Source of the DNA: Ostreococcus lucimarinus
Taxonomy: Eukaryota
Assembly (NCBI GenBank): GCA_000092065.1
Contig: CP000588.1
Reading direction: 5' to 3' (one strand)
Length of the DNA stretch: 64,000 nt
A program made the position numbers and the translations under genes. Below are positions 2,096-53,302 of the stretch, one piece after another. The first letter of the stretch is position 1. Each line of letters begins with the position of its first letter. The notes under the pieces were generated by a model, which ran no database searches, was not told the DNA's origin, and saw nothing but the letters and a program-made list of their open reading frames with translations.

Positions 2096-5000
2096 ATGTC
2101 GCACCTCGAGCGCGCGCACGACGCGCGCGCGACCGCAGACACCGACGACGGCCGACGCGCGTCCTCTGATCCGAGTCCGTCGACGCAGAGCGCGTGGAAA
2201 CGCACCATCGCGTCGTGCGAGGTGCGATTTCCGTTGACGCCGTACAAGTCGCAGGTGCAAGTGATGAGCGCGGTCGTTCGAGCGGCGCGCCGAGGAACGT
2301 GCGCGCTCGTGGAGTCGCCGACGGGGAGCGGGAAGACGCTCGCGCTGCTGTGCGCGGCGCTGGCGTGGAGCGAGAGCGAGAGCGAACGCAGGGAAGACGT
2401 GGGCGTGGACGACGACGAAGACGGGGAGGAGGACGAAGCGCGCAAACGCGAGACGAAGAGAATCGGAAACGGTAAACCACCAAAGATTTATTACGCCACG
2501 CGCACGCACGCGCAGATCGCACAAATAGTCGGTGAATTGTCGAGGACGGCGTATAAGCCGCACACCGTGGTGTTGGCGTCGAGGGAGCATTATTGCGTGA
2601 ATAAGAGCGCGAGAAAGGGCGGAGACGTCAACGCGGAGTGTCGAAGGTTGATGGATGCCGGCGCCGCGGGTGGGGACGGGAAAGGGTGTTTTTATAGCGG
2701 ACAAGGGGCGAGTAAGTTGGCGTCGTTGGCGAAAAACCATCCCGACGCGCTGGATATCGAGGATTTGGTGAAGATGGGGACGTCGAAGAAGGGATGCCCG
2801 TACTTTGCGTCGAAAATCATGGCGGAGAGCGCGGAATTAATTTTCTGCCCGTACAACTATCTCTTGGATCCGCGCACGCGTTCGGCCATGGACATCGATA
2901 TCGAAGGTTCACTCATCATTTTCGATGAGGCGCACAACATCGAGGACACCGCGCGCGAGGCGGCGAGTGAGGAAATAATTTTAGACGACGTCGCGAACGC
3001 CATCGATCGTCTGAGCGAGATGCGGCGGCGCGCGACGGCAAACGTGAGCGAGTGCGAATTGGTGTTGAGGAGCATGAAGGGCGTTTACGATTGGTTCATT
3101 GGATTTTGCGACGAAAAAAGCCCAAGTTACGGTCTGAAGCAAGCGCAAGAAGCGTTATCGGCGATGGTTCGAGGGGAGCAGATTTTACAAACGTTGGCGG
3201 AAGCCGGGCTGACTGAAGAGAGCGTTTTAGAAGTCATGCGAGCGCTCGGCGTCATCACCAAGTATAATCAAGAGAACAAAGATCCGAAAGAGCGCGTCGC
3301 GGGCAGCGTTTTCAACACCTGTGAAAAAGTGCTGAATCCTATCAAGTTTTTGCTCTCGCGAGGCGAAGTCACCGCGCGCGATTACAAAATCGTCTTCACA
3401 AAGACGCGCGAAAGCGATCGAGTCGTTTCGACGCAACGAGTGAACTCTGAATTGAATAGATTACCCGTGGAAGAACTGGTGAAGATTAACTTTTGGGCAC
3501 TGAATCCAGCGCTGGCTTTCAGAGAGCTCGTGAGCGAAAACGGCGGCGCGCGTTCAGTCGTGCTCACGTCTGGTACTCTCGCGCCGCTCAATTCGTTCGC
3601 GAGCGAGCTCGGCGTACCGTTTCCCATCCGCATGGAAGCCCCGCACTGCGTGGATATGGATCGTCAGGTCTGGGGCGGCATCGTCGCCGCCGGTCCGAGC
3701 AACATAGCTTTGAATGCCGGTTACAAGTCTCGCGGCGATACTAGTTTTCAAGACGAACTCGGCGCGTGTTTGCGAGACGTCGCGAAAGTCACCCCTCACG
3801 GCTTGCTCATGTTCTTCCCATCGTACAGTCTTTTGGAAACCATCGTTCGACGATGGCGCGAAACGGGACTGCTGCGCGCGATAGAGCAGGCGAGCGGCAA
3901 GAAGATTTTTCAAGAACCGGGTAAATCATGCTCGTACGGTAAAAAACCGGTGACGCTTGAGACGGTGTTGGAAAAGTACTATTCCGCGGTGGCGACGAGC
4001 GTCAAGGCAGCAAAACATCCGTACGCTCCGGCTCCAGCGAACGCCAAATGTCGAGGTGCCATTCTCTTCGCCGTGTGTAGAGGCAAGATTAGTGAAGGTA
4101 TTGACTTCGCCGACGCTAACGCGCGGGCGGTGATCTGTGTTGGGATTCCGTATCCAAACATCAAAGACGCGCTCGTCGCGGCGAAGCGAAGTTACAACGA
4201 AGAAGGAGCGCATCGAGGTTTGCTGAGTGGCTCGAAATGGTACGATCAGCAGGCTTTTCGGGCGCTCAATCAAGCCGTCGGTCGATGCCTGCGGCATCGT
4301 CACGATCACGGCGCAATCATGCTCGTCGATTCGCGTTTCAACAACAGCAACATCCAGGCGCTGCCGAAATGGTTACGTCCCGCCATGCAGAAGAGCGCGT
4401 CTCGCTTTGGCGACCAAGTGAAAAGCTTGGAAAATTTCTTCGTTTCGCACGCCGAGAATCCACCGAGCGATGACGCTCCAGCGAGCAAGACAGGCGACCA
4501 ACGGAAGAATAGCAAACGAGCGAGAGTGTCCATCGTCGCGACGTCTCCTCGAAAGGCGATGCGTAATACGCCAATCACGAGCTTCTTTCAAAAGGCGTCG
4601 ACGAGCAACGCGACTCATTCAGATCCTCTCATGCGCGACATCGAGCAGCCATCGAAAAAGACAAAGGATGACCAAATCGGTGACTACGAGGCGCCAGTGT
4701 TCACGGACGACGACGAGCTTGACGTCGACATTGACGCGCTCATGGCGGACAACCATGAGTTATCGCCAGAGGCGAATGTCGCGCAAGTTCTCGACGGTGT
4801 CGAGTGGGAGGATTGGGAAGACGACGACGATCTAATGGCGCAAGCCGTGCAAGCGACACAAACCGCGCACACGATGAGTAAGGTAGAGAGCACGACACCG
4901 ACTGAACAAGTCCTGGATGTCGTCTCGCCTCTCAAGCAACGCGCGAAGAAAGTCTGCGGCGACGACTCCGTCTGCGCCAAGTGTGGAAACACTCGCTATT

Positions 5001-49191: not shown

Positions 49192-50798
49192 TTAGAAGTC
49201 TTCGTCGAGGGAGAACGCGTTCGCGTTGCCACCCCCGATAGAGTTCATGACACCCGCCTTCTGGTATTCGCCGACGCGCTTCTCGAAGAAGTTCGTCTTA
49301 CCTTGAAGAGAGATGAGTTCCATCCAATCAAACGGATTCGTCGTGTTGTACTCCTTGGCCAAGCCCAAAGAGCAGAACAAGTGATCGGCGACGTATTCAA
49401 TGTAGTCGCTCATCATGCCGGCGTTCATGCCCACGAGCGCGCACGGAAGAGAGTCGCACACGAACTCCTTCTCGATTTCAACAGCCTCGGTGACAATCTT
49501 GCGAATGGTTTCTTCGCTCGGCTTGTTGTTCAACATGCTGAACAACAAGCACGCGAAATCGCGGTGCAAACCTTCGTCACGAGAAATGAGCTCGTTGGAG
49601 AAGGTCAAGCCCGGCATCAAGCCACGCTTCTTGAGCCAGTAGATGGAGCAGAAAGAACCAGAGAAGAAGATGCCTTCAATGCACGCGAACGCCAAGAGAC
49701 GCTCGGCAAACGAGTCGCTCGAGTCGATCCACTTCAACGCCCAGTCAGCCTTCTTCTTCACGCACGGGATGGTATCGATGGCACGGAACAGGTGGTCCTT
49801 TTCCACCGGATCCTTGATGTACTGATCGATCAACAAAGAATACATTTCTGCGAACGATGAAGAAAGCGTTTTGAGTCAGTCGGTTTGAATTCGAGAGCGT
49901 TTGCGCGCGCGAGGTGGAAATTCCTTCTCCAATCGCAAGAATCGAGCGCATCTCTCGACGTACCGGAGTGAATGTTCTCGATGGCGATTTGGAAGCCATA
50001 GAACGCGCGGGCTTCCGGAATCTGAACCTCGCCCATGAAACGAACGCCGAGGTTTTCGAGCACGATGCCGTCCGAGGCGGCGAAGAACGCAAGCACGTGC
50101 GAGACAAAGTGCTTCTCATCCTTCGTGAGCGTCTCCCAGTGCTTCATGTCGTCCGACAGATCGACTTCCTCCGCTGTTTGCGCACAAAAGCACGCGCGAT
50201 CGCGTCGATGTACCGTTAGTCACGCGTCCCGTTCGCCCTTCGCTCTCTCGCGCGCCGCGCGATTTCAAACTTTGCGCAGCGTTCGACGTGACGTCACCCC
50301 ACGCGCTCGTTCGCGCACGCACCGGTCCAGAAAGACGCCTCAGCCTTCTTATACATCTCCCACACCTGCGGGTACTGAATCGGGAACATCGTGAACCTGC
50401 GAGCGACCGCGAAACGCGCGCGAAACCTCCGTCAGTGTCTTTTTCAACTAAACGACTCGAAAATCATCCACGACGTCATCTTCCCCAACCTCCCACACCA
50501 CCCGCGCCTCGCGCGCGCCGTCGCCCGCGCCGACGCGCGCGTCGAAATCCCTCACGCAGTCTTCGCCCCCCGAACCGCGCCATCGCGCGTCGCGCGCGCG
50601 TCCAGCCCCGCGAAACGATTCCCGGCACCGGCGCGATTTCAAATTCGAACGTTGCGCCCCATCGTTCGCGCGTCCCTCACCGCGCGCGCGCGCGTCCATC
50701 GACGCCGTCGCGCGCGCGCACGCGTCGCGAATATTTTTCTTCACGCACCGTTGGTCGTTTTCATCGAGCAAAGGCTCGGCGAGCGGGAGAGGCGACAT
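49192..50798 (-). CDS. RNR2: Ribonucleotide reductase small subunit (R2), 4 exons: join(50746..50798, 50323..50396, 49964..50173, 49192..49847)
   Basis: Exon 1 '[17 protein letters not shown]' + GTGCGT donor; exon 2 '[24 protein letters not shown]' + GTGCGT; exon 3 '[38 protein letters not shown]…[11 protein letters not shown]' + GTACGT; exon 4 '[11 protein letters not shown]…' to stop. All junctions keep frame (330 aa). Confidence 0.85.
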
Positions 50799-51065
50799 GT
50801 TTTGCGTCGGCGGGCGTGGAGTAATGACGCGCGTGCCGGCCTGACGCGCGTGCCGGCCTCGTGGTCGCGCTCTCGGCGGACGCGCGGAAAATCACCCGCG
50901 CGTCCGCCGAGACGCATTTAAGATACTTTGAGCGCCATCATCGCTACTTATGAGTCACGAACGGTGCTTTCGAGACTCGGTCAAAAATCACACGCGTGCG
51001 GCGCTTCAAACGTTTTTCGGCCTCGACGCGCCAACGCCGCGCGCGTCACACATCGTCTCGAAGCC

Positions 51066-51605
51066 ATGGGAAAGGTCCACGGTTCGCTCGCTCGCGCTGG
51101 TAAAGTACGTACACGATATTCTTCTCGATCGATGCGGCGCGCGCGGCGCGCGTTCGGCGCGGCGCGGCGCGCGCGGCGTGGGATCGTCGCGTTAGGGCTT
51201 CGCACGGCGGCGATCGACGACGCGCGCGGCGATCGACGCGCGGCGTCGCTTCGAACGCGCGAACGCGGGGAGTCGCGATGAGATGGCGCGATGGATGGGG
51301 TCGGACATCGCGCGCGGGCGGGAACGGGGCGCGAGATGCGTCGGCGTGGGGGCGCGGGGCGACGGGGCGATCCATGGATGATGGCGGGCGAGGGACTAGG
51401 GCTGAGACGCGCGCGAACGCGAGACTGACGAAGCGATTTCTTACGCGTTGATCAGGTTCGTGGTCAAACCCCGAAGGTCGCGAAACAAGAAAAGAAGAAG
51501 CAGCCCAAGGGCCGCGCGTTCCAACGCATCAAGTACAACCGTCGTTTCGTGAACGTCGTCGTGGGCATTGGCAAGAAGCGCTCGCCGAACTCTAACCAAG
51601 CGTAA
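51066..51605 (+). CDS. RPS30: Cytosolic ribosomal protein eS30 (RPS30), 2 exons: join(51066..51104, 51456..51605)
   Basis: Exon 1 '[13 protein letters not shown]' + GTACGT donor; 351-bp intron; acceptor ttgatcag; exon 2 '[49 protein letters not shown]'. Confidence 0.85.
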
Positions 51606-51616
51606 ACGACGAGAAG

Positions 51617-52198
51617 ATGATTAGTGTTTTCGGAAATCGTTTGAAAGGTGCGACGGCGGTGCGGTCGTTCGCTGTTAATAGTTTGGAGAGTATGAGAGGA
51701 TGTTTGATGAGTAGTGAGTTAGGCAGCCAGTGGGCGCCGGCGACGCGCTGGGCGAAGTCGATTGTTTCGACGACATCCGTCGCCGCCGGAGACGCCGCTG
51801 AGGGTCGATCGAGCCGACGTTCGCTGGACTTGAATCAAAAGTCTGGTGAAATCAAACCCGAATTAGTGAAAAAGTATCTGAGTGAGACCAACATGTCGAG
51901 GGGAGACGTGAACAAGCGCGCGCTCGCCGAAGAGCGAGCCGCGTTTGCGCGCGACGAACACGACACGGGGTCGAGCGAAGTACAAATCGCCAACTTGACC
52001 ATGCGCATTAAGCTCATGACGGAACATTTGCGTGAACATGGAAAGGACACGCACAGCCGTCACGGGCTCATGGCCATGCTCGAGCGCCGGAAGAAGCTTT
52101 TAAAGTACCTCCGACGCACCGACGGCGATAGGTACGCGGATGTCATTTTACGACTCGGTTTGAAGGATCGATCTTTCGTAGACGACAAGTACGCTTAA
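51617..52198 (+). CDS. RPS15: Organellar (bacterial-type) ribosomal protein uS15 with N-terminal targeting extension
   Basis: 'GSSEVQIANLTMRIKLMTEHLREHGKDTHSRHGLMAMLERRKKLLKYLRRTDGDRYADVILRLGL' is a canonical S15 domain. ATG at 51617 lies 11 nt after the RPS30 stop; the true start could be the internal M (MSSELGS…). Confidence 0.8.
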   Translation: MISVFGNRLKGATAVRSFAVNSLESMRGCLMSSELGSQWAPATRWAKSIVSTTSVAAGDAAEGRSSRRSLDLNQKSGEIKPELVKKYLSETNMSRGDVNKRALAEERAAFARDEHDTGSSEVQIANLTMRIKLMTEHLREHGKDTHSRHGLMAMLERRKKLLKYLRRTDGDRYADVILRLGLKDRSFVDDKYA

Positions 52199-52345
52199 TA
52201 TTTTGTGATACGAGTCTTCAACTGCGTTTACACCGCGTGCCCGTCTCCGCCTCCCGAACGACGCGACGACGTAGTCGCATTTTTTTCGTCCGGGCTCGAG
52301 CGCCAAAAAGCCGTTTGCCGTTCCTCACACGCCACCGCGCGCACC

Positions 52346-53302
52346 ATGCTCGCATCGCGTCTCGCCAACGCCGCGCGACGCGCCACCGCGAGAACCGCGC
52401 GCGCGTCTTCATCCGCGCCCGCGTCCGCACCGCTGCGCCGCGCGCACGCGCTCGCGACGCGTCGTCGGTCGTCCCGCTCGAGCGCTTCGCGAAGCGCGTC
52501 TTCATCGAACGATGCCGACGCCGAAGCGCGCTCGCGCGACGATTGGATCGTCGTCGGGTGCGATTCCGACGCCCACGGCGCGCTGTGCGTGATCTCGGGC
52601 GCGTCCGTGGGCTCGGTGCGAAGCGTGAACGTTCGGGACAATCCCACGAGCACGGTGACGGTGAACGGACGCGCGCGACTGCGACTGGACCCGGACGCCA
52701 TGCGCGGCGCGGTGCGCGCGCTGGGCGTGCCCAAAGGCACGAGGGTGTATTTGGAAGAGGGCGGGGTCGAGTTCGGGTTCAGCGCGCAGACGGCGTTCGT
52801 GCAAGGGTATAATTTCGGGCTGTGGCGAGGCGTGCTCGCGGCGGAGGAATTCGAAGTGCGCGTGGTGAAGCCGCAGGCGTGGAAAGCGGCGATGGGGTTG
52901 AAGTTCAAGGGAAGCACGAAGGATGATTCGATCGCGATGGCGAAGATGCTTTTTCCCGAGATCGCCGGCGAGCTGAAGCGGAAGAAGGATCACGGGAGAG
53001 CCGAGTCGTTGCTCATCGCCGCGTACGGGCACGTCGCAGACGGGGGCGCGGCGGCGAAAGAGGAAGACGAACTGTGTTCTCGCGTACGCGCCGCGCTCGC
53101 CGACCGAGGCGTCGTCGACCGCGAAGAGGGCGCGGCGATGCCGTACTTTGGGCCGTATTTCGGCATGACTGGGGAAGAATTGAGGAAAGAACTCAAAGCG
53201 CGCGGGTGCAAAGTCGGCGGCAACAAAGCCGACTTGATTTTACGTCTCGAGTCGAGCGACGCGGAGATCAACGAGCGCGAATCCAAGAGCGCCGCGGCGT
53301 AG
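52346..53302 (+). CDS. RNase H-fold RuvC/YqgF-like putative Holliday-junction resolvase with C-terminal SAP domain (MOC1-like candidate), organelle-targeted
   Basis: Transit-peptide-like 'MLASRLANAARRATARTARASSS'; 'DWIVVGCDSDAHGALCVI' resolvase-type start; C-terminal 'GEELRKELKARGCKVGGNKADLILRL' SAP motif. Track start 52205 is GTG; ATG at 52346. Confidence 0.65.
   Translation: MLASRLANAARRATARTARASSSAPASAPLRRAHALATRRRSSRSSASRSASSSNDADAEARSRDDWIVVGCDSDAHGALCVISGASVGSVRSVNVRDNPTSTVTVNGRARLRLDPDAMRGAVRALGVPKGTRVYLEEGGVEFGFSAQTAFVQGYNFGLWRGVLAAEEFEVRVVKPQAWKAAMGLKFKGSTKDDSIAMAKMLFPEIAGELKRKKDHGRAESLLIAAYGHVADGGAAAKEEDELCSRVRAALADRGVVDREEGAAMPYFGPYFGMTGEELRKELKARGCKVGGNKADLILRLESSDAEINERESKSAAA

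Follow-up and report, generated by a model that had tools for sequence, protein, structure and literature searches.

A closely spaced eS30-uS15m gene pair of Ostreococcus lucimarinus, a candidate conserved bicistronic mRNA of prasinophyte green algae

Bicistronic mRNAs were discovered in green algae by Iso-Seq (Gallaher et al. 2021, PMC7896298), and mutational work on these algal bicistrons supports leaky scanning and argues against both reinitiation and internal ribosome entry sites (Duenas et al. 2024, PMC11291117). The published median spacers between the two open reading frames (ORFs) are 183 nucleotides (nt) in Chlamydomonas and 40 nt in Auxenochlorella (PMC11291117). Here we describe a locus of similar layout in Ostreococcus lucimarinus, located in a 64,000-nt (64-kb) stretch of contig CP000588.1 (assembly GCA_000092065.1), which is called the window below. 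On the plus strand of the window, the gene for the cytosolic ribosomal protein eS30 (RPS30; ORF1) is followed after 11 nt by an ORF for the mitochondrial ribosomal protein uS15m (ORF2). Like the green-algal bicistrons, the locus has two ORFs that lie on one strand without overlapping, have separate start and stop codons, and are set apart by a short spacer. ORF1 is markedly shorter than ORF2 (62 vs 193 codons), no AUG lies between the two starts, the order is colinear over deep time, and both ORFs are found on one polyadenylated, RNA-derived contig, here from short-read assemblies. It differs in that ORF1 encodes a ribosomal protein of very high expression, whose start context is strong, not weak, and in that the published single mRNAs were shown by full-length reads, whereas the evidence here comes from short-read contigs. 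We favor, with a probability of roughly 0.55, a conserved bicistronic mRNA on which ORF2 would be reached by leaky scanning, the latter by analogy with the experimentally tested green-algal bicistrons (PMC7896298, PMC11291117).

Several other known systems resemble this locus in part. CDC26-TTM3 of plants and green algae (cited in PMC11291117) shares with it a small ORF1 closely followed by a larger ORF2, on one mRNA there and on a presumed one here, and a wide conservation. It differs in that both products here are ribosomal proteins, of two compartments, and in that the pair is found in two prasinophyte classes, not extending to land plants. Lorenzo-Orts and colleagues reportedly described CDC26-TTM3 in 2019 as a bicistronic locus with ORF2 translated via leaky scanning. 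Overlapping transcription in the compacted genomes of microsporidia and nucleomorphs is said to have been described by Williams and colleagues in 2005. In these organisms the overlap is a by-product of compaction, and the long RNAs are in general not regarded as templates for the translation of their downstream ORFs. Ostreococcus is similar in its very compact genome and in having adjacent genes on common RNA contigs (L011, L047). Unlike in microsporidia and nucleomorphs, pairing and spacing are kept in larger, less compact relatives, and this conservation points to a function. Caliciviruses and influenza B virus carry termination upstream ribosome-binding sites (TURBS), by which termination-reinitiation takes place with an upstream motif complementary to 18S rRNA. 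As in these systems, the ORF1 stop and the ORF2 start lie within ~10 nt of each other in Ostreococcus, but inspection revealed no conserved TURBS-like motif, spacing and frame differ among lineages, and the locus is cellular, not viral. Animal FAU (FUBI-eS30) co-expresses eS30 with a second polypeptide from one mRNA, as is proposed here, and one of the contigs described below (L112) even carries a FUBI-like domain upstream of eS30. FAU is a fusion cleaved after synthesis, whereas the partner here lies downstream, in a separate ORF, and is mitoribosomal.

The eS30 gene consists of two exons. Exon 1 (51066-51104; codons 1-13) starts with the ATG at 51066 in the context gaagccATGg, and exon 2 (51456-51605) comprises codons 14-62 and the TAA stop at 51603-51605. 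The 351-nt intron between them (51105-51455) is of the GT-AG type, with GTACGT at its 5' end, GATCAG at its 3' end and a branch-point-like ACTGAC at 51424-51429. The splice was confirmed by the Logan contig L011, from which exactly this intron has been removed. The spliced product of 62 amino acids (aa) matches the Pfam Ribosomal_S30 profile over its full length (E 1e-30), is 100% identical to the annotated eS30 of O. lucimarinus CCE9901 (XP_001419064.1), which assigns the window to this strain, and has no Met, Cys or Trp beyond the start. A short 5' leader of the unit is presumed at 51030-51065, its extent being taken from contigs of relatives. The nearest ATG upstream is at 50950, and the 115 nt before the eS30 ATG are ATG-free.

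The second ORF (51617-52198) has 193 codons and a TAA stop at 52196-52198, and its ATG stands in the context gagaagATGa. An in-frame stop is found nine codons upstream of this ATG, therefore the ORF cannot be extended in that direction. Its product is identical to P0001 (UniRef A0A7R9SZA9; an MMETSP transcript; 126 contigs), a protein named S15 from Ostreococcus 'lucimarinus'. Residues 106-183 (51932-52165) make up an S15 domain (Pfam PF00312 Ribosomal_S15, E 3.8e-29). The structure matches were uS15m of the plant mitoribosome (9evs_N, E 2.9e-21; 6xyw_Bn, At1g15810, E 6.8e-21), Chlamydomonas uS15m (7pkq_o, E 3e-16) and chloroplast uS15c (E about 1e-9). The alignments with plant uS15m start at residue 80, ahead of the Pfam domain, and yeast uS15m matches too. 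The closest named non-green homologues are from oomycetes, which are plastid-less. Judged by these matches, the second ORF is a mitochondrial uS15m and not a plastid protein, because the best PDB matches are plant mitoribosome chains and the oomycete homologues belong to organisms without a plastid. An earlier note on this DNA, made from its letters, had recognized two eS30 exons ending at this stop, an ORF of 193 aa opened by the ATG at 51617 outside the eS30 frame, and an S15 domain in its C-terminal half. Reading, translation, Pfam and the spliced contig L011 bear this out, and the 'organellar-type' protein of the note is sharpened to a mitochondrial one by the PDB matches.

The spacer between the two ORFs (51606-51616, ACGACGAGAAG), read directly from the plus strand, has 11 nt and is ATG-free. 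By comparison, the other same-strand gaps between coding sequences in the window are at least 81 nt, on a rough ORF-based map in which two apparent intron-split genes were set aside, and the mean intergenic distance in Micromonas is 167-211 nt (PMC4815162). The eS30-uS15m pairing is beyond chance, because the other gaps of the window are this much wider and because the pair recurs in ~22 lineages. Further, the eS30 mRNA must physically extend into the S15 ORF, because 11 nt are too few for a poly(A) signal, cleavage site, promoter and 5' untranslated region (UTR) together. The gap had already been considered too small for an independent promoter in the earlier note, in agreement with our gap survey.

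The earlier note had proposed a comparison with orthologous loci in related algae, and the pairing is kept in many of them. The order eS30-then-uS15m, on the same strand and with spacers of 9-60 nt, was found in ~22 lineages from the Mamiellophyceae, the Pyramimonadophyceae and one further eukaryote. The carriers are several Ostreococcus, three Bathycoccus, Micromonas and other Mamiellaceae, Pyramimonas sp. CCMP2087 (assigned through cluster membership with a MMETSP1445 / EukProt protein) and the eukaryote of contigs L112-L116. Scanning JGI metagenome and metatranscriptome contigs with an S15 alignment resulted in 80 loci; wherever the upstream sequence sufficed, eS30 was located immediately 5' of S15 on the same strand.

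Counted between the eS30 stop and the first ATG in the S15 frame, the spacer is 9 nt in two Ostreococcus-like lineages (L030 and L037 groups), 11 nt in O. lucimarinus, 12 nt in a further Ostreococcus-like lineage (L044 group), 15 nt in O. tauri and a relative (L035), and 30 nt in two lineages (L054-L060, the group with Ostreococcus sp. RCC789, and L052/L053). Pyramimonas sp. CCMP2087 has 36 nt. Among the Mamiellaceae, it is 37 nt in L088, 39 nt in the Micromonas-like loci and 40 nt in L061, and 49, 53, 54 and 56 nt in those with an intron-bearing S15. The three Bathycoccus lineages have 52, 53 and 55 nt (for example, in B. prasinos, L014, a 218-codon S15 ORF begins 53 nt past the eS30 stop), and the eukaryote of contigs L112-L116 has 60 nt.

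The neighborhood in O. tauri (L013) comprises a peptidase M14, the ribonucleotide reductase small subunit, eS30, S15 and a SAP-domain protein. Bathycoccus shares this synteny, plus one inserted 172-aa ORF. The tight spacing was kept despite eS30 intron turnover between genera and S15 intron gain in some Mamiellaceae. We compared the eS30 introns of the window (51105-51455), of L064 (1721-1857 and 1936-2266) and of L014 (3062-3416). Ostreococcus has one intron (phase 0, after codon 13), Micromonas has that one and a second after codon 39, and Bathycoccus has a single phase-1 intron after codon 20. The 5' splice site is always GTACG or GTGAGC, and in most of these introns a CTGAC-type branch box precedes the 3' splice site by ~25-35 nt. 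In Auxenochlorella and Tetrabaena, the 3.5 kb that follow eS30 contained no detectable S15.

The pair is not mentioned in the main text of PMC7896298 or PMC11291117, nor in six supplementary files of PMC11291117, and our wider literature searches found no description of it. The published searches for conserved pairs had used loci of Chlamydomonas, Chromochloris and Auxenochlorella as seeds. They would have missed the pair, because the seeds were from core chlorophytes and the pair is absent beside eS30 in Auxenochlorella and Tetrabaena. What is new here is the combination of a highly expressed cytosolic ribosomal protein as ORF1 with a mitoribosomal protein as ORF2, and its conservation in Mamiellophyceae and Pyramimonadophyceae; the principle itself is not new.

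Spliced eS30 and the whole S15 ORF occur together on at least 25 transcript-type contigs. Contigs with the intron removed and spanning the whole S15 ORF are L011, L012, L047, L061, L086 and L088, while L098 is partly spliced. Joined contigs were also found in Bathycoccus metatranscriptomes and RNA-seq data (L102-L111, 10 shown of the 17 carrying that eS30), in L112-L116, and in Pyramimonas (L117-L118). A poly(A) stretch follows the S15 stop in three contigs, at 85 nt in L061 and at 150 nt in L113 and L115, and poly(A) was observed after S15 only. At the other end, contigs from relatives start 23-44 nt 5' of the eS30 ATG (L047, L086, L088, L103, L105, L106, L109, L116, L118). In L086, L116 and L118 the sequencing adapter directly abuts a leader of 28-40 nt before this ATG, and several Bathycoccus contigs begin ~30 nt ahead of it. 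The contigs retrieved via the spliced eS30 protein all carried S15 downstream, and none ended between both ORFs. The mature mRNA would be a single molecule, from which ORF2 would be translated.

One 274-aa peptide (P0260) from the transcriptome of Ostreococcus sp. RCC789 (MMETSP0932) has eS30 first and then S15. We read this apparent fusion as an artefact of a single-base indel; it is still one contig spanning both ORFs. In a protein clustering at 90% identity, eS30 and S15 fell into one cluster, probably bridged by P0260. A 57-nt deletion in L095 was considered as a sign of RNA origin and rejected, being without GT-AG ends.

The proposed unit would consist of the short 5' leader, spliced eS30, the 11-nt spacer, uS15m, a 3' UTR and poly(A). 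The majority of the scanning 40S subunits would start at the eS30 AUG and yield the abundant cytosolic ribosomal protein. A minority would bypass it and, as 200 nt follow without a further AUG in any frame, initiate at 51617 and yield the low-abundance mitoribosomal protein with its presequence. In every green lineage examined, the next ATG in any frame after that of eS30 is the S15 ATG. The output of the mitoribosomal protein would in this way be tied to that of the cytosolic ribosomal protein at a fixed low ratio. Since the mRNA is very abundant, even slight leakage past its strong AUG would suit the modest demand for a mitoribosomal protein of low abundance.

Several observations, on the contigs, on sequence motifs and on the start codons, weigh against this reading. 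The contigs are all short-read assemblies and prove the continuity of the transcribed sequence, not a single molecule. L011 covers five called genes from both strands, and L047 likewise enters neighboring genes; the merging of neighboring transcripts in short-read assemblies has been flagged as a problem (PMC4815162). The 901-nt contig L129, which is from a near-identical strain and contains a duplication artefact close to the stop, starts within the eS30 intron. It is ambiguous among genomic DNA, pre-mRNA and an internal start, and as such uninformative.

With respect to motifs, CCGGCCCA was found in the spacers of most Mamiellaceae lineages, ~10 nt past the eS30 TAA (L062 2034, L064 2346, L066 2062, L067 2032, L073 2091), with the variants AGCCCA in L012 and L087 and GGCCCT in L088. 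Neither the much shorter Ostreococcus spacers nor the AT-rich ones of Bathycoccus contain it. Telo-box-like AAACCCTAA sites are present in S15 intron 1 (telo-like sites at L062 2259, L066 2291, L067 2261, L073 2320, L083 2351) and, together with CCGGCCCA, are a candidate mark of an S15 promoter. In plants, the telo-box, which is the telomere-repeat unit, marks ribosomal-protein genes, and forms a promoter module with the 'site II' element (TGGGCC on the other strand), which CCGGCCCA resembles. CCGGCCCA could be an S15 promoter element or a translational/RNA element. A spacer hairpin around GGCCCA in Mamiellaceae was considered and rejected, as it is not conserved by inspection.

An intron of the unit carries TTAGGG[CT] or AAACCCTAA in every Ostreococcus and Mamiellaceae lineage checked, the introns being otherwise unalignable. 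In the window, the eS30 intron has TTAGGGC at 51192-51198 on the plus strand; in total, TTAGGG occurs four times and CCCTAA twice in the 64 kb. Telo-like sites in the eS30 intron of other lineages are at L013 2597 and 2787, L030 2077 and 2286, L037 1072 and 1274, L044 2001 and 2195, L052 2021, L054 1928, L064 2202, L087 1966 and L090 2134. Bathycoccus had zero telo-box-like motifs. An alignment of the eS30 intron from seven Ostreococcus lineages showed conservation of the splice site, the branch point and the short telo-like motif only, and an Rfam scan of the intron gave zero matches. An intronic small nucleolar RNA or a conserved internal promoter was rejected on these grounds, and a CUGA considered as its D box is the branch point.

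These motifs would fit two overlapping monocistronic transcripts. The transcription start site of uS15m would then lie inside eS30, in exon 2, in the intron or, for Mamiellaceae, in the spacer, and the eS30 mRNA would run on into or through S15, as the compact genome offers no space for a terminator. uS15m would be made from a shorter mRNA with the eS30 exon 2 as leader, and the absence of AUG from this exon fits the role of a 5' UTR equally well. The merging of neighboring transcripts in L011 and L047 and, ambiguously, the start of L129 in the eS30 intron are also in its favor. On the other hand, the tight spacing is kept where compaction is milder (Bathycoccus 52-55, Micromonas 39, Pyramimonas 36 nt), no spliced-eS30 contig ended between the ORFs, and poly(A) was seen after S15 only. 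A start in the Ostreococcus intron would place several AUGs in the leader, the intron has no conserved promoter-like block beyond the splice signals and the telo-like motif, and a promoter within a very highly transcribed ribosomal-protein gene would be expected to suffer interference. We consider overlapping transcripts, which the earlier note had listed too and which short-read assemblies do not distinguish from a bicistronic mRNA, rather unlikely, yet a rival to be taken seriously.

As for ORF1, all NAY codons of eS30 (His, Asn, Asp and Tyr) end in C (101/101), both where a T would create an ATG (T in 0/36) and where it would not (T in 0/65), and eS30 of the Prasinoderma control is likewise ATG-free. 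The absence of ATG from ORF1 does not discriminate for leaky scanning, because it follows from this codon bias and from eS30 having no Met, Cys or Trp. The eS30 start context, judged without a species-specific consensus, is strong, with a purine at -3 in all lineages except L061 and a G at +4 in all, whereas published green-algal bicistrons tend toward a weak ORF1 context (PMC7896298, PMC11291117). The Micromonas-like ORF2 start also has A at -3 and G at +4. Finally, the lineage of L112-L116 has an in-frame ATG (M51) inside ORF1.

The last two features of ORF1, its strong context and the tolerated internal AUG, would suit a bicistronic mRNA with reinitiation, in which 40S subunits would stay on the mRNA after the eS30 TAA and restart at the S15 AUG. 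With a strong context most ribosomes translate ORF1, which favors a post-termination route, and the internal in-frame AUG of L112-L116 would hinder leaky scanning, not reinitiation. The very short Ostreococcus spacers (9-15 nt) and an ORF1 that is short for a protein-coding ORF (62 codons) point the same way. Yet 62 codons are long for efficient reinitiation (established knowledge, discussed in PMC11291117), and both the spacer (9-60 nt) and the frame (0, +1, +2) vary freely among lineages. No conserved UGGGA-type TURBS motif was seen upstream of the stop by inspection, without a formal scan, and tests on other green-algal bicistrons led to the rejection of reinitiation there (PMC11291117). 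The earlier note had offered a bicistronic mRNA with reinitiation as one of four options, with no choice made among them. The bicistron is supported by the ~22 lineages, the joined contigs and the three poly(A) sites, whereas the length of ORF1 and the variable spacer and frame speak against reinitiation, which we regard as improbable.

The start of uS15m itself was considered from its N-terminus. Codons 1-30 (MISVFGNRLKGATAVRSFAVNSLESMRGCL; 51617-51706) are the presumed mitochondrial presequence. Basic residues are at positions 8, 10 and 16 of residues 1-23, and the first acidic residue is E24, by inspection. The N-terminus contains an RSF|A motif, which looks like the type cut by the mitochondrial processing peptidase, with a predicted cleavage after residue 18. 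In six Ostreococcus lineages the frame of these codons is open, with in-frame indels only, and the N-terminal blocks VFG.RL, RSFAV and LES.RG.LMSSEL are conserved. The ratio of nonsynonymous to synonymous substitution rates (dN/dS) for codons 1-30 is noisy, ranging from 0 to 1.5 and mostly 0.1-0.7, and gives weak support for coding; it is 0.25-0.64 for codons 31-75 and 0.06-0.25 for the S15 domain. The values for the domain, and the fact that eS30 and uS15m are both conserved ribosomal proteins, lend indirect support to translation of both ORFs. In every genus, the S15 ORF opens with a presequence-like peptide of the form M-[AS]-x-[WV]-...-R, 9-60 nt past the end of eS30. Examples from other genera are MASWVSAALR, MAGCVFRALR, MSLWRRIAARGR and MAGWVRKIAS, none of which has a counterpart of Met31 of Ostreococcus.

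According to the earlier note, RPS15 might begin at this downstream Met (MSSELGS, 51707). The two genes would then be merely tightly packed, with a mis-called start and with the first 90 nt of the ORF untranslated. Met31 is kept in 6/6 Ostreococcus lineages, prokaryote-style gene callers often begin there (P0004, P0007, P0009, P0011), and GC and GC at third codon positions (GC3) are lower in the first 120 nt than in the rest of the ORF. However, the frame is open and many residues are conserved from the first ATG in the same 6/6 lineages, and the ORFs of Micromonas, other Mamiellaceae, Bathycoccus and Pyramimonas start 36-56 nt past the eS30 stop with M-A-x-W/V...R and no equivalent Met. Even with a start at Met31 the gap would be only 101 nt, and the eS30 3' end would still overlap S15. 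The conserved codons 1-30 and the presequence-like start in every genus thus leave the downstream start very improbable as the sole one; Met31, conserved within Ostreococcus, may serve as an additional start.

At the nucleotide level, GC3 is lower in the first ~120 nt of the S15 ORF, with 0.53-0.57 in 4/5 Ostreococcus lineages vs 0.62-0.72 at nt 121-240 (51617-51736 of the window and homologous parts of L013, L030, L037 and L044). The proportion of synonymous differences (pS) in the first 30 S15 codons is 0.13-0.23 in 3/5 comparisons with O. lucimarinus vs 0.3-0.5 in the next 45 codons, and the rare AT-rich codons AGT AGT GAG TTA are conserved near the S15 start. This suggests an extra nucleotide-level constraint at the S15 start, e.g., low structure or an alternative eS30 poly(A) region.

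The frame relation between the ORFs also bears on a fusion of eS30 and uS15m by stop-codon readthrough or frameshifting. On spliced RNA the offset is 0 in many lineages (O. tauri, L030, L037, L044, L052, L054 and the Micromonas-like loci), as a readthrough product would need. Elsewhere it is +1 (L061, L088 and one of two modelled Bathycoccus lineages) or +2 (O. lucimarinus and the other modelled Bathycoccus lineage). The eS30 stop is TAA in every lineage where it was read, and in a fusion the mitochondrial presequence would be buried internally. We give this explanation hardly any credence.

A more far-reaching form of the leaky-scanning reading is conceivable, though we place it somewhat below even odds: that eS30-uS15m is an ancient, obligately bicistronic mRNA that predates the split of Mamiellophyceae and Pyramimonadophyceae, with leaky scanning hard-wiring uS15m as a fixed small fraction of the cytosolic ribosomal protein output. 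The origin would possibly be still earlier if the FUBI-eS30 lineage (L112-L116) lies outside both classes. If true, cytosolic and mitochondrial ribosome biogenesis would have a built-in coupling, and the ORF1 of a eukaryotic bicistron would be among the most highly translated ORFs in the cell.

The locus would extend green-algal polycistronic expression to a case found from prasinophyte sequence, and not via homology to Chlamydomonas, Chromochloris or Auxenochlorella. Its hosts are ecologically dominant marine picoalgae, and one of them, O. tauri, is a transformable model. The pair suggests a simple way to set the ratio of cytosolic to mitochondrial ribosomal proteins, and offers a natural test of leaky scanning past a strong start. 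The natural spacers of 9-60 nt could serve two-gene expression cassettes in Mamiellophyceae. Short-read expression estimates for uS15m are confounded by eS30 transcripts. Annotation may be affected as well, O. tauri having the pair annotated as two genes with 15 nt between them. For the exact O. lucimarinus S15 protein, the only listed sources are UniRef/MMETSP, JGI and Logan, and not NCBI, while eS30 has an NCBI accession. In eight Bathycoccus assemblies (L014-L021, GCA_9641994xx-9641996xx) the 218-codon S15 ORF (3598-4254) has no gene call in the index, and a near-identical S15 protein is annotated in the reference B. prasinos genome (XP_007513682.1).

Some relatives had further features next to eS30. 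In L112 (28-420), a FUBI-like ubiquitin-fold domain is fused to eS30 (130 aa; 58-63% identical to arthropod FAU), with S15 on the same contig. In L113 and L116, from the same lineage (Logan SRR13370253-SRR13370322), eS30 starts plainly with M-GKVHG. The difference could be due to alternative first exons or to paralogues. The poly(A) site in the L112-L116 lineage follows TGTAA, as in green algae. In the metatranscriptome contig L068 (1-151; P0125), a canonical ubiquitin C-terminus (...LVLRLRGG) is in frame with eS30, followed by the usual spacer and S15. Genomic loci from that species (L071, L073) align with eS30 from its first residue onward and read as a plain Met start, and the ubiquitin part of L068 is AT-richer, so that the ubiquitin-eS30 join is probably an assembly chimera.

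Prasinoderma coloniale-like contigs (L125 1291-1441; L127 471-614) have an ORF that begins with the presequence-like MRSLAALAARAPA, ~115 nt past the eS30 stop and after a G-rich stretch; the contigs end too early to identify it. If this ORF is uS15m, the pairing would predate Chlorophyta.

In the window, the pair is flanked by the ribonucleotide reductase small subunit on the minus strand (49192-50147), split apparently by an intron or a frame change, and by the SAP-domain protein on the plus strand (52346-53302). The gap between the uS15m stop and the ATG of the latter at 52346 (52199-52345, plus strand) presumably accommodates both the end of the unit, with its 3' UTR and poly(A) site, and the promoter of the following gene.

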